From: Escherichia coli
GTDB lineage: Bacteria > Pseudomonadota > Gammaproteobacteria > Enterobacterales > Enterobacteriaceae
Assembly (NCBI RefSeq): GCF_045037415.1
Contig: NZ_CP173438.1
Strand: one strand, 5' to 3'
Length of the DNA stretch: 64,000 nt
In this document: in pieces, positions 54,001-59,267 of the stretch
Position numbering within the stretch: the first letter of the stretch is position 1
Layout: each line of letters opens with the position of its first letter
Position numbers: made by a program

Positions 54001-57000
54001 ATTGTCTGAATAGCGTTACGTTTTAACGGTACGGGTCCATCCAGCGTAAACCGGCTTCCGTGGTGGTTTGGGGTTTATATTCACAGCCAACCCAACCGTT
54101 GTAGTCAGAATTTTCAATTACCGTAAAGAGATATTCGTAATTAATTTCTCCGGTTCCCGGTTCGCCGCGATGCGGATTATCAGCAATTTGCAGGTGACCA
54201 ATTTTATCGGCCCACTGAGTCATGGTATTGGTTAATTCACCTTCCATCCGCTGCATGTGATAAATGTCATACTGAATTTTCAAATTGCAGCAACCAACAT
54301 CGTCAATCAGTTTCAGTGCCTGCCGGGTTCCGGTGAGATGAAAACCAGGAATATCAAAATGGTTAATAGGTTCAATCAGTAATAAAATATCTTCTTTCAT
54401 CAGCATATTCGCAGCATAACGCAGGTTTTCTACAAGCGTTGTGTGAATCTGTTCACTGCTGAAACCAGTCGGTGTTTTACCGACCAGACAGTTAATTTTT
54501 TTATTACCCAGCGCACGAGCATAACGAATCGCTGCTGCTACGCCATCCCGAAACTCTTCTTCACGGCCAGGAATACAGGCAATACCCCGCTCGCCCGCCG
54601 CCCAGTCACCTGCCGGTAAATTGTGCAGCGTATGTTCAAGTTTATTACTCGCCAGCACCTGTTTTAATTCTTCAATGTCGTAGTCATAAGGGAACATAAA
54701 TTCAACGCCGCGAAAACCACACTGCGCAGCTTTCTCAAAACGGGCGAGAAAATCATATTCACCAAATAACATCGATAAATTAGCAGAGAAACGTAACATT
54801 ATTTATCTCCCTTATTCATAGTGCATGAAACAGGTTTCAGTCGGTGCATCCGCTGCGTTATCGGCGATATCTTCAAATTCCATGACGTTATCCAGTTCAC
54901 TGCCCATCGAAATATTAGTCACACGCTCGAGAATAACTTCCACGACTACCGGTACCCGATATTGCGCCATTAAGATTTTCGCCTGTTCAAAGGCTGGTGC
55001 AATATCTTCCGGTTTGAAAACGCGAATTGCTTTACAACCTAAACCTTCCGCTACTTTTACGTGGTCGACGCCATAACCGTTCACTTCGCTGGAGTTAATA
55101 TTTTCGAACGCGAGCTGTACGCAGTAATCCATATCAAAGGCACGTTGCGACTGGCGAATCAGACCCAGATAGGCGTTATTGACCAGTACATGGATGTACG
55201 GAATGTTGAACTGTGCGCCAACGGCTAATTCTTCAATCAGGAACTGGAAGTCGAAGTCACCGGAAATCGCCACCACATTGCGCTCTGGATCAGCGGCACA
55301 AACCCCCAGCGCCGCCGGAATCGTCCAGCCCAGCGGGCCTGCCTGCCCACAGTTGATCCAGTGGCGGTCTTTAAAGACATGCAGCATTTGTGCCGCAGCG
55401 ATTTGTGACAGGCCAATGGTGGTGACATAACAAACATCGCGGCCAAAGGCTTTGTTCATCTCTTCATACACGCGCTGCGGTTTCACCGGCACGTTGTCGA
55501 AGTGGGTTTTGCGCAGCAAAGTGCGTTTGCGCTGCTGGCAGTCGGCGACCCACTCTTTACGACACGGCAGACGACCGGCTTTTTGCATCTCCTGCGCCAC
55601 TTCAACCAGCAGCGTCAGCGCCGCTTTAGCATCAGAGACAATGCCAAGATCCGGACACAGCACGCGGCCAATTTGCGTCGGCTCAATATCGATATGAACG
55701 ATTTTGCGCCCTTCGGTGTATTTCTCTACCGAACCGGTATGACGGTTAGCAAAACGGTTACCGATACCAAACACCATGTCGGACGCCAGCAACGTTGCAT
55801 TACCGTAACGATGCGCGGTTTGCAGGCCCACCATCCCGGCCATCAGTTCATGATCGTCCGGGATACAGCCCCAGCCCATCAGCGTTGGGATCACCGGAAT
55901 GCTGGTCAGTTCAGCAAACTGTTGTAACAGTACAGCTGCGTCAGCATTAATTACCCCGCCTCCGGCAACAATCACCGGACGTTCGGCCTGGATTAACATT
56001 TCTACAGCTTTTTCGATCTGCATACGGCTGGCAGCAGGTTTGTAGACCGGCAGCGGTTCGTACATATCAGGATCAAACTCGATTTCCGCAACCTGTACGT
56101 CGAACGGTAAATCCACCAGTACCGGACCCGGTCGACCAGAACGCATCAGGTGAAACGCCTGTTGCAGCACACGAGGCACCAGCGCCGCTTCACGAACTGT
56201 AACCGCCATTTTGCTGACCGGTTTAGCAATTGCTTCAATATCAACGGCCTGGAAATCTTCTTTATGCAGACGGGCGCGCGGAGCCTGGCCGGTAATACAC
56301 AGAATAGGAATGGAATCAGCAGATGCGGAATAGAGCGCGGTGATCATGTCCGTGCCCGCAGGACCGGAAGTCCCCAGACATACGCCGATATTCCCTGCCG
56401 TTGCGCGGGTATAACCTTCCGCCATGTGCGAAGCACCTTCCACATGACGCGCCAGAATGTGACGAATACCGCCGTGCTTACGCATCGCTGAGTAGAACGG
56501 ATTGATTGCAGCTCCCGGAACGCCGAAGGCGGTGGTGATACCTTCTTTCTCCAGCACATACATTGCCGCGTCAACGGCTCTCATTTTTGCCATTTTATTC
56601 CTACCTCTATTAATTGGAAAAATTTTCCAACTTTCAAATTTTGTCAAAAAAACCCGCTCCGCAGAGCGGGATACGACAGACACTATAGATGTGCTTTCAG
56701 TCCCAACGCCGTGCTGATATCGCGGGCGGTGTCTCTGACCAGCTCACCCTGACTGACAAAACGATCTTCTGTCAGTCTTGATGAAGGCCCGGAGATGGAG
56801 ATAGCGGCAACAACACTACCTACATCATCGTAAATTGCTGAAGCTATGCAATTCAGGCCGACAACATGCTCTTCTTTATCTACGGTATAGCCCAGTTCAC
56901 GCGCTTGTTCCAGGTCCTTCAGCAAGGTGGGCATATCCACAAGTGTCGTTGGCGTAAACTGCTGCAAACCGGTTTGCAGAATGATGCTCATCAACTCTTC

Positions 57001-59267
57001 TTCCGCCAGCGGATAAAGCAGCGCCTTGCCCGCTCCGGAAGCATGCAGCGGCAGACGACTGCCCAGCGGCGCACACATCCTGACCATCGATTTACACTCT
57101 AACTGACCAATTAATACCGCTTCATTGCCGTTACGGATCGCGACATTGACCGTTTCGCCGGAAAGTAACATCAGGCGGCGCATAAACGGCCCGGCGACGG
57201 AGAGGACATCGCGGTTATGGATGTACGCTGCACCGACGTTAAAGACACCTAATCCTATATGCCACCAGCCTAACTGATTGTCCTGATAGACAAAATCCGC
57301 TGCCTGTAAAACCTTCAGCAAGCGAAAGGTCGTGGAGAGCGGCAAATCCAGATTGAGAGAGATATCGCTAACCGACGAACTTCCCCCACTTTTTTCCAGA
57401 TATTGCAGAATCGCAATTCCCCGCTCTAACGCCTGTGCGCCCTTCTGTGCTACAGGCTCCGCCTGTCCTGGCCTGCCGCGCCGTCTAACTTCCGTCATAC
57501 CTACGTTAACTCCGACCTACAAATGAGCATAAACAATGAACAATTCGTTTATCTTATGCAAGTCGGTTGCAGGCGTCACGCAAAACAGAGTTCCTGTTCA
57601 GGAATACTTTCAACATCACAGTTGTCACTGCCGCCGCGATCGATGGTCAGAAAATCGGTGACGCGCTGCCAGGCGAAAAGTGGGTGATGCCAGACGTTAC
57701 GATGGTAATTCACTCCCTGTTCGCCATTGGTAATAAACGCCCGCAGGGTTGACAGGTCTGGTTTGTCGTCACCTAACGCCACCACCACCACAAACACTTC
57801 ACCTTTCATCGGGATAAACGCCTGTGTACCCAGCGGATGACGTTCGAGTTCGTGAATGGTCAGCGGCAGATTCGCCGGTTGCGCGCGGTTAATGCTGATA
57901 AGCGTACGGTCTTGCTCAAGAATCTCAACCAGCGCCAAATCGTGGTAACGCTCCACCAGTCCATTGTTAATATGGAAAAAATCCCGTTTCTGCGTTTCGA
58001 TTACGTCGCCATAAGCACTAAAGGCTTTCTGACTTAACGGTAATACCTGAAGTTTCATCTTTTTGTCCTTGTAACATAATTCCGTTCAACCACCGCCGAC
58101 CGGTCAGCTTGGTTTCAATAACAGGCAATCTAAAACCTTAAGAGAACAACATCAACACAAAAGTTGGAATATTTTTCCAAAACTAGATTTAGTCCACAAA
58201 TTGAACAGGGTTATCATGTAAAAATACTGATAAATCAGAGGATAAGAAAATCACGCAACTTGCGGATTTAAAAGGGGATACCTGAAGATGTTCGATCCAG
58301 AAACCTTGCGGACTTTCATTGCGGTTGCTGAAACAGGTAGTTTTTCAAAAGCGGCAGAACGATTATGTAAAACCACGGCGACGATCAGTTATCGCATTAA
58401 ACTTCTGGAAGAGAATACCGGAGTGGCGCTGTTTTTCCGCACGACTCGCAGCGTGACGTTGACGGCGGCTGGCGAGCATCTACTTTGTCAGGCCAGAGAC
58501 TGGCTGAGCTGGCTGGAAAGTATGCCCAGCGAGTTACAACAGGTGAATGATGGCGTGGAACGCCAGGTGAATATCGTCATCAACAACCTGCTCTATAACC
58601 CCCAGGCCGTTGCCAGGCTGCTGGCGTGGCTAAATGAACGTTACCCGTTTACCCAATTTCACATCTCCCGACAAATCTATATGGGCGTCTGGGACTCGCT
58701 ATTGTACGAAGGTTTTTCACTGGCTATCGGCGTCACGGGAACCGAGGCGCTGGCAAATACCTTTAGTCTTGATCCCTTAGGATCGGTGCAATGGCGCTTT
58801 GTCATGGCGGCGGATCATCCGCTGGCGAACGTTGAAGAGCCGCTAACAGAAGCACAGTTGCGGCGCTTTCCGGCGGTCAATATTGAAGACAGCGCCCGCA
58901 CCTTAACCAAACGCGTCGCCTGGCGATTGCCGGGGCAAAAAGAGATTATTGTTCCCGATATGGAAACGAAAATCGCCGCCCATCTGGCGGGCGTTGGCAT
59001 TGGTTTTTTGCCAAAATCACTTTGCCAGTCAATGCTCGATAATCAACAACTGGTCAGCCGGGTAATCCCAACGATGCGCCCTCCTTCGCCATTGAGTCTG
59101 GCATGGCGCAAATTTGGCAGCGGCAAAGCGGTAGAAGATATTGTGACCTTGTTTACCCAGCGCAGGCCGGAAATCAGCGGATTTTTAGAAATTTTCGGCA
59201 ACCCACGCAGTTAAAAATCAAGTTTCCTTGCGCGTTGGCGCGTAAAATAGCGCGCAAGCTGATTTGA

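Follow-up and report, generated by a model that had tools for sequence, protein, structure and literature searches.

Two palindromic boxes in this stretch of Escherichia coli DNA are almost certainly operators of AllR, an IclR-family repressor whose gene lies between them; glyoxylate releases AllR, which represses gcl, allA and allS. The palindromes are AllR binding sites that have already been published: a real feature, read correctly in an earlier note on this sequence, but not a new one. Together the boxes act as the switch by which E. coli links the breakdown of purines and allantoin to the assimilation of glyoxylate. As an AllR-controlled reporter the gcl promoter is in use already, and the known picture is unchanged; added here are a cross-genus footprint that fixes the invariant positions TTGGAA / TTCCAA and leaves the dyad centre free, the uniqueness of the box within 64 kb, and confirmation of the short gcl start.

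Two matching palindromes stand apart from the background

The window (the whole 64,000-nucleotide stretch analysed) is E. coli chromosome, and the region is 100% identical to strain 4/1-1. Direct reading and a pattern search found both palindromes where the earlier note had placed them (Table 1). Counted from the A of the gcl start codon (56593), the near edge of the first box (56614) is 21 nt away, leaving 20 bases between them, in agreement with the claimed distance of 21 nt upstream of gcl. The second box does sit between allA and allS, in the 229-bp gap that separates the allA start (58058, - strand) from the allS start (58288, + strand); its palindrome carries a single mismatch, located in the inner arm. 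The gene assignments for gcl, allR, allA and allS likewise agree with RefSeq.

Table 1 Features of the gcl-allS region, in window coordinates
Feature	Position	Strand	Details and basis
Very probable AllR operator at the gcl promoter	56614..56630	.	TTGGAAAAATTTTCCAA on + strand; perfect 8+1+8 palindrome
Very probable AllR operator common to the divergent allS and allA promoters	58164..58180	.	TTGGAATATTTTTCCAA
gcl, glyoxylate carboligase	54812..56593	-	593 aa from the short start; heads the AllR-repressed gcl operon; RefSeq, Pfam
allR, IclR-family repressor, very probably of both boxes	56683..57498	-	RefSeq, Pfam HTH_IclR + IclR_C
allA, ureidoglycolate lyase, AllR-repressed	57576..58058	-	RefSeq, Pfam; repression from literature
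allS, LysR-type activator of allDCE and allF, AllR-repressed	58288..59214	+	RefSeq, Pfam; literature
Intrinsic terminator of allR and AllZ sRNA	56646..56670	-	Stem-loop 56653..56670, T-run 56646..56652
Predicted gcl -35, TTGACA	56642..56647	-	Weight-matrix scan; overlaps end of allR terminator T-run
Predicted gcl -10, AATTTT	56619..56624	-	17-bp spacer; inside AllR box
Predicted allA -35, TTGATG	58150..58155	-	8 nt from box
Predicted allA -10, TAGATT	58127..58132	-	Partner of TTGATG
Predicted allS -35, TTTAGT	58188..58193	+	7 nt from box; in conserved block AGATTTAGnCCACA
Predicted allS -10, TATCAT	58212..58217	+	Partner of TTTAGT

Short palindromes are commoner in A/T-rich intergenic promoter DNA than in coding sequence, and both boxes lie in such DNA. 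They might on that account be chance symmetry, or generic UP-element or curved DNA, with no dedicated factor. However, the pattern TTGGAA-N5-TTCCAA (TTGGAANNNNNTTCCAA) matched only the two boxes in the 64-kb window, and it was found in none of 100 dinucleotide-preserving shuffles of that window. A weight matrix derived from orthologous sites scored the boxes at 32.9 and 32.5 bits, 20 bits above the next best match in the window (12.9 bits, inside cusC); because the matrix was made from the same kind of site, only this gap to background is informative. When up to three mismatches were allowed, five matches were observed in the window against 2.57 expected by chance. The three extra candidates, inside cusC (18692), inside a gene annotated as tssD (62596) and over the gcl start codon (56587), were rejected as chance matches since none scores above 12.9 bits and the real boxes reach about 33 bits.

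The half-sites are conserved across genera

We compared 20 loci that carry allR, drawn from about eight genera (Escherichia, Superficieibacter, Klebsiella, Raoultella, Citrobacter, Buttiauxella, Izhakiella and Atlantibacter). At no more than one mismatch, each of these orthologous loci contained exactly two boxes, whose relative positions did not change: the gcl box was kept in 20/20 loci and the allS-allA box in all 19 loci that cover that region. The distance between the two boxes was 1,541-1,629 bp in every species examined. Conservation was concentrated in the TTGGAA / TTCCAA half-sites, which are almost invariant (column entropy 0.024 and 0.050 bits; the remaining intergenic columns have 1.10 and 1.20 bits). 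The A/T-rich centre and the flanks vary. Chance symmetry would not be expected to hold G/C-containing half-sites constant in about eight genera while its A/T-rich surroundings change; this pattern effectively refutes that reading, which we consider extraordinarily improbable.

At the dyad centre either A or T can occur, with a 10 to 10 split across species, as predicted for a symmetric dimer reading two half-sites. Two alleles of the gcl box also exist within E. coli, and both are common, at 1,991 and 1,987 exact-allele genomes; these figures are allele counts rather than presence or absence, because each allele, when queried with the other, falls below the E-value limit. In the most divergent E. 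coli match both boxes are intact and the flanks are changed. Near either operator, no auxiliary weaker box was conserved among the 20 loci, and none exceeded 8 bits apart from copies of the main box shifted by 1 nt.

The boxes correspond to published AllR sites of K-12

The published AllR motif KTTGGAAWAWTWTTCCAAC fits the gcl box at 18/19 positions (GTTGGAAAATTTTTCCAAT, - strand) and the allS-allA box at 19/19 (TTTGGAAAAATATTCCAAC, - strand). A 37-bp AllR recognition site, AAATCTAGTTTTGGAAAAATATTCCAACTTTTGTATT, as quoted from Rintoul et al. 2002 (J Mol Biol 324:599), corresponds to window positions 58154..58190, where the allS-allA box and its flanks form the reverse complement of the quoted sequence. 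In this comparison with the published site 36/37 bases match; the box is the core of the quoted sequence and the single mismatch falls outside it. The fit of both boxes to the motif, and the position of one of them within the recognition sequence as quoted, bear out their earlier description as AllR-type.

The K-12 AllR operators belong to the same organism and have the same genes and positions as the two boxes described here; in K-12 coordinates the gcl box corresponds to 533,879..533,895 and the allS-allA box to 532,329..532,345. While the allS-allA box is identical in K-12, the gcl box differs at the dyad-centre base alone, which in the gcl direction is T here and A in K-12. The flanks contain a few further SNPs, and the difference amounts to strain-level polymorphism only. 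AllR occupancy upstream of gcl has been reported in vivo, and published binding at the gcl and allS-allA promoters is attributed to AllR. A K-12 gcl promoter fragment that spans only the allR terminator to the gcl ribosome-binding site acts as an AllR-repressed reporter, and the gcl box is contained in that fragment. According to literature that cites Walker 2006 and Rintoul 2002, K-12 AllR binds DNA in vitro and glyoxylate abolishes this binding.

Which regulator reads the boxes

The location of the boxes at gcl and allS-allA follows from RefSeq annotation, and these genes are AllR targets according to the literature. The encoded AllR is intact, with 271 aa and both HTH_IclR and IclR_C domains, and residues 95-270 match the AllR effector domain (PDB 1TF1) at E = 1e-109.

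IclR is a glyoxylate-responsive paralogue of AllR that represses the glyoxylate shunt, and the boxes could in principle be IclR operators or be common to both proteins. The published IclR motif TGGAAATNATTTCCA, which describes the boxes at the aceBAK and iclR promoters, has the same palindromic TGGAA-N5-TTCCA core as both boxes here; by hand count, its specified positions agree with the gcl box at 12/14 and with the allS-allA box at 11/14. The effector domains of IclR are also close to that of AllR (E = 1e-44 for PDB 1TD5 and 2O99). Nevertheless, neither box keeps the inner AT-N-AT positions characteristic of the IclR box, and TTGGAA..TTCCAA has an outer T and an outer A that are absent from the IclR motif and invariant across genera. 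IclR boxes belong to another regulon with other promoters: the window contains neither aceBAK nor iclR, and the boxes described here sit at gcl and allS-allA instead. In every locus examined the boxes accompany allR, and the literature credits AllR with binding at these promoters. A role for IclR is thus very unlikely, and AllR remains the regulator that best accounts for the boxes.

Other regulators of the cluster (AllS, RutR, ArcA or Nac) might be proposed in place of AllR. The literature does note a RutR site upstream of the gcl operon, but no match to the RutR box TTGACCAnnTGGTCAA with three or fewer mismatches occurs within about 2 kb of either box. Published work has AllS and ArcA acting on other promoters in the cluster, with their binding shown at the allD-allF control region rather than at these boxes. 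The AllR box is not known to resemble the motifs that LysR-type regulators or ArcA recognise. We give this alternative virtually no credence.

Predicted promoters and a model for repression by AllR

Promoter positions were predicted by weight matrix and are not mapped starts; the hexamer frequencies used are approximate. At gcl, a TTGnnn hexamer is kept at the alignment position of the -35 element in most species, and the same -10 column (96/97) was chosen in about ten species. The predicted -10 hexamer, AATTTT, is weak. For allA, TTGATG-17-TAGATT or a close variant was the first or second promoter candidate at alignment column 169 in 21/21 sequences. The allS prediction is weaker than that for allA, with its -10 at alignment column 87 recurring in about ten sequences. 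The centre of the allS-allA box lies near -52 of both predicted starts, a position unusual for plain steric repression. A separate promoter scan gave TTTCCA-17-TAAAAT as its sole match (1 observed versus 2.2 expected, consistent with chance); it cannot drive gcl because its -10 covers the gcl start codon.

In K-12, according to published work, AllR binds both regions and is released by glyoxylate. The sequence identity, uniqueness and cross-genus conservation of the boxes are observed, and the predicted promoter geometry adds a putative mechanism. Without glyoxylate, AllR would occupy both boxes and block RNA polymerase. At gcl, where the predicted -10 hexamer and spacer lie under the box, the block would be one of simple occlusion. 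Between allS and allA, one box would have a -35 hexamer on either side, the two back to back and each 7-8 nt away. Since the quoted 37-bp recognition sequence would reach both -35 elements, one bound repressor could shut two divergent promoters. Other single operators of divergent back-to-back promoters likewise serve both with one site; unlike those systems, in which the operator lies over a -10 hexamer, the allS-allA box is predicted to lie between two -35 hexamers near -52. Glyoxylate, which AllA produces, would free AllR and thereby turn on the gcl operon and allA. Release would also turn on allS, and AllS would then activate allDCE and allF.

The A/T polymorphism at the dyad centre falls inside the predicted gcl -10 and may tune basal gcl expression while leaving AllR binding unchanged. 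A further feature concerns the oligomeric state of the repressor. The PDB table gives four chains for 1TF1. AllR reportedly acts as a tetramer, in contrast to the single dimer-sized palindrome at each operator with no conserved auxiliary site. Lone palindromes of this size and a tetrameric repressor would permit one AllR tetramer to bridge the two boxes, looping out allA-allR including the AllZ sRNA; we regard this arrangement as improbable. Were it correct, repression of gcl, allA and allS would be coupled with control of allR itself.

The gcl start codon

The earlier note favoured the short gcl start at 56593 because the first box overlaps the N-terminal extension of the longer reading frame. 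While the short start is correct, operator overlap is a weak reason for it, and stronger evidence lies elsewhere. The 30-codon extension of the long form traverses the allR terminator, whose stem is conserved across genera with sequence changes that keep pairing. In 15/18 orthologous loci outside Escherichia the extension is closed by in-frame stops 1-7 codons before the ATG. Cross-species conservation of gcl begins at ATGGCAAAAATG, which is preceded by the ribosome-binding site GAGGTAGG, and the Pfam domain TPP_enzyme_N starts at residue 4 of the short protein. An extension that is not conserved, a terminator inside it, a ribosome-binding site before the ATG and a Pfam domain from residue 4 together establish the short start.

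Two palindromes flanking allA-allR fit the published AllR operators

The palindromes that the earlier note had claimed on either side of allA-allR, site 1 (the gcl box) and site 2 (the allS-allA box), were confirmed by direct reading and by a pattern search (table). On both strands of the 64-kb window TTGGAA-N5-TTCCAA matches these two sites only, and it had no match in any of 100 dinucleotide-preserving shuffles. The palindrome is perfect (8+1+8) at site 1 and has one inner-arm mismatch at site 2. A search allowing up to three mismatches found five matches in the window versus 2.57 expected; the three extras (one in cusC, one in the gene annotated as tssD, one across the start codon of gcl) were dismissed, as their count is within chance, and they score at most 12.9 bits versus ~33 bits for both boxes.

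RefSeq annotation agrees with the positions claimed for the palindromes: site 1 lies downstream of allR, 21 nt before the gcl ATG, and site 2 between allA and allS, which are divergently transcribed. This geometry is correct given the RefSeq gene positions, the Pfam domains and the match of AllR residues 95-270 to PDB 1TF1, the AllR effector domain (E = 1e-109). Several E. coli chromosomes match the 2-kb region at 100% identity, and among 5,426 complete genomes of the species 5,401 contain most of it. The 77-bp allA-allR gap (57499..57575) is without an AllR box. Sources disagree on the status of these two genes: PMC10163214 gives one operon (allAR), PMC12535856 two separate units, with allR transcribed from its own promoter in this gap.

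Features of the allantoin region and of the 6143..7585 segment
Feature	Position	Strand	Sequence or content	Basis
Site 1	56614..56630		TTGGAAAAATTTTCCAA	direct reading of window sequence
Site 2	58164..58180		TTGGAATATTTTTCCAA	direct reading of window sequence
gcl	54812..56593	-	thiamine-diphosphate enzyme	RefSeq; Pfam
allR	56683..57498	-	IclR-family regulator (HTH_IclR + IclR_C)	RefSeq; Pfam
allA	57576..58058	-	ureidoglycolate lyase	RefSeq; Pfam
allS	58288..59214	+	LysR-type regulator	RefSeq; Pfam
Predicted gcl -35	56642..56647		TTGACA, directly after allR terminator T-run	weight-matrix scan
Predicted gcl -10	56619..56624		AATTTT (weak), inside gcl box	weight-matrix scan
Candidate allA promoter	58150..58155 and 58127..58132	-	TTGATG-17-TAGATT	weight-matrix scan
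Candidate allS promoter	58188..58193 and 58212..58217	+	TTTAGT-18-TATCAT	weight-matrix scan
ORF in segment	7016..7537	-	helix-turn-helix transposase domains	
ORF in segment	6168..7019	-	rve integrase core	

The E. coli AllR motif is KTTGGAAWAWTWTTCCAAC in a comparative study of IclR-family regulators citing Rintoul 2002; of its 19 positions, site 1 fits 18 and site 2 all 19. The Rintoul 2002 recognition site, as quoted in a 2026 paper, is AAATCTAGTTTTGGAAAAATATTCCAACTTTTGTATT, the reverse complement of 58154..58190 but for one difference outside the box. The earlier note had called for comparison with published AllR footprints; the motif and recognition site that these papers take from Rintoul 2002 agree with the palindromes. 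Genome-wide protein occupancy data, as analysed in another study, show the AllR site upstream of gcl occupied in vivo. A K-12 fragment bounded by the allR terminator and the ribosome-binding site of gcl serves as an AllR-repressed reporter promoter. Taken together, these results support the AllR-operator reading of both palindromes, as the already known, published operator pair of the E. coli allantoin regulon.

The half-sites are conserved across genera

With AllR protein as query and one genome per species, 20 loci had a complete AllR match (75% to 100% identity), from Escherichia, Superficieibacter, Klebsiella, Raoultella, Citrobacter, Buttiauxella, Izhakiella and Atlantibacter. Wherever a locus covers both regions, it holds exactly two boxes with no more than one mismatch: one between allS and allA, and one ~17-25 nt before gcl. 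Within the intergenic alignments, conservation is highest in the half-sites (column entropy 0.024 and 0.050 bits versus 1.10 and 1.20 bits in the remaining intergenic columns), and the lowest-entropy 6+5+6 mask is exactly the box, whose five central positions are variable yet still A/T-rich. The shuffles and this conservation pattern rule out chance symmetry.

IclR, the glyoxylate-shunt paralogue, has a motif, TGGAAATNATTTCCA, with a core in common with the boxes, and might cross-bind them to some extent. However, the AllR boxes differ from that motif at inner positions, their invariant outer T and A fall outside it, and the boxes accompany allR across loci. A RutR-like box was looked for near gcl and not found.

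The window and K-12 gcl boxes differ only in the central base (56622), and exact 59-mers of the window type and K-12 type occur in 1,991 and 1,987 complete E. coli genomes. Across species the dyad centre is A in 10 and T in 10 at gcl, and divides 13 to 6 at allS-allA; the A/T polymorphism at 56622 is balanced within E. coli and across genera. This base should make no difference to a symmetric dimer that reads the half-sites. Position 56622 also belongs to the predicted -10 hexamer of gcl, which reads AATTTT or AAATTT depending on the allele, and the choice of base could therefore affect basal promoter strength. The most divergent E. coli match (91% identity over the 59-mer) has changed flanks and both boxes intact.

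Walker's 2006 work is said to have AllR acting as a tetramer, and the PDB table gives four chains for 1TF1. Each operator is a lone, dimer-sized palindrome, and weight-matrix scores over orthologous loci revealed no conserved auxiliary site for either. In every species examined the boxes are separated by 1,541-1,629 bp, and at this spacing AllR might bridge both in a loop around allA-allR.

Predicted promoters and a model of repression

Published accounts include AllR binding at both regions and its release by glyoxylate. We infer the promoter geometry from a sigma-70 weight-matrix scan over aligned species, with approximate hexamer frequencies. At gcl, about ten species have TTGnnn and a weak -10 at identical alignment columns; AllR at this predicted promoter would occupy about -18 to -2, directly obstructing polymerase. 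TTTCCA-17-TAAAAT, though better-scoring, was rejected as the gcl promoter because its -10 hexamer lies over the start codon.

TTGATG-17-TAGATT, sometimes as a close variant, takes one of the top two ranks at a single alignment column in 21/21 sequences and is likely the allA promoter; the allS candidate is less consistent. Given both predicted promoters, site 2 would sit between their -35 hexamers (8 nt from that of allA, 7 nt from that of allS), its centre at about -52 relative to either predicted start. The quoted 37-bp recognition sequence reaches both predicted -35 elements, so a single bound repressor could shut both promoters. The outcome is the known circuit, in which glyoxylate made by AllA relieves gcl, allA and allS of repression; AllS in turn activates the allD and allF operons.

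Directly adjoining the box on the allS side, the block AGATTTAGnCCACA (58185..58199) has cross-genus conservation almost equal to that of the box. It holds the predicted allS -35 hexamer, but it might also be another factor's binding site.

The gcl start and the allR 3' end

The long gcl ORF (GTG at 56683, 623 aa) passes through the allR terminator. Upstream of the gcl ATG the frame is open for 50 codons in Escherichia, and 15 of 18 orthologous loci outside Escherichia have an in-frame stop 1-7 codons upstream. Across species, conservation starts from ATGGCAAAAATG, with GAGGTAGG ahead of it, and Pfam TPP_enzyme_N begins at residue 4 of the 593-aa product. These observations agree with the RefSeq start, and the short start at 56593 proposed earlier is right; the argument then offered for it, overlap of site 1 with the gcl extension, is the weakest of those given.

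The sRNA AllZ (b4831 in the K-12 annotation), from the allR 3' end, was northern-verified in PMC8175672. By homology it maps to 56646..56880 on the minus strand, its 3' end being the allR terminator. The T-run of this terminator lies 16 nt from the AllR box and shares bases with the predicted -35 hexamer of gcl. AllZ is without annotation in the RefSeq record of strain 4/1-1, a chromosome identical to the window in this region.

Other features of the window

A 1,443-bp segment (6143..7585), absent from the otherwise identical strain 4/1-1, is an insertion sequence of the IS3 family, similar in size to IS150, inserted beside the duplicated hokE loci. Between ybcF (carbamate kinase) and purK lies a tandem array (38757..39263; period 100 bp, 5.1 copies, 96% matches) whose units, judged by eye, contain REP-like palindromic sequence (GCCGGATGCGGCG...CGCATCAGGC). 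On the minus strand at 60441..62513, three tandem paralogous DUF2931 genes (about 89-93% mutual DNA identity) follow a gene of 2 kb whose annotation is type VI secretion tube protein TssD, and together they look like an Hcp-linked effector/immunity-type array.
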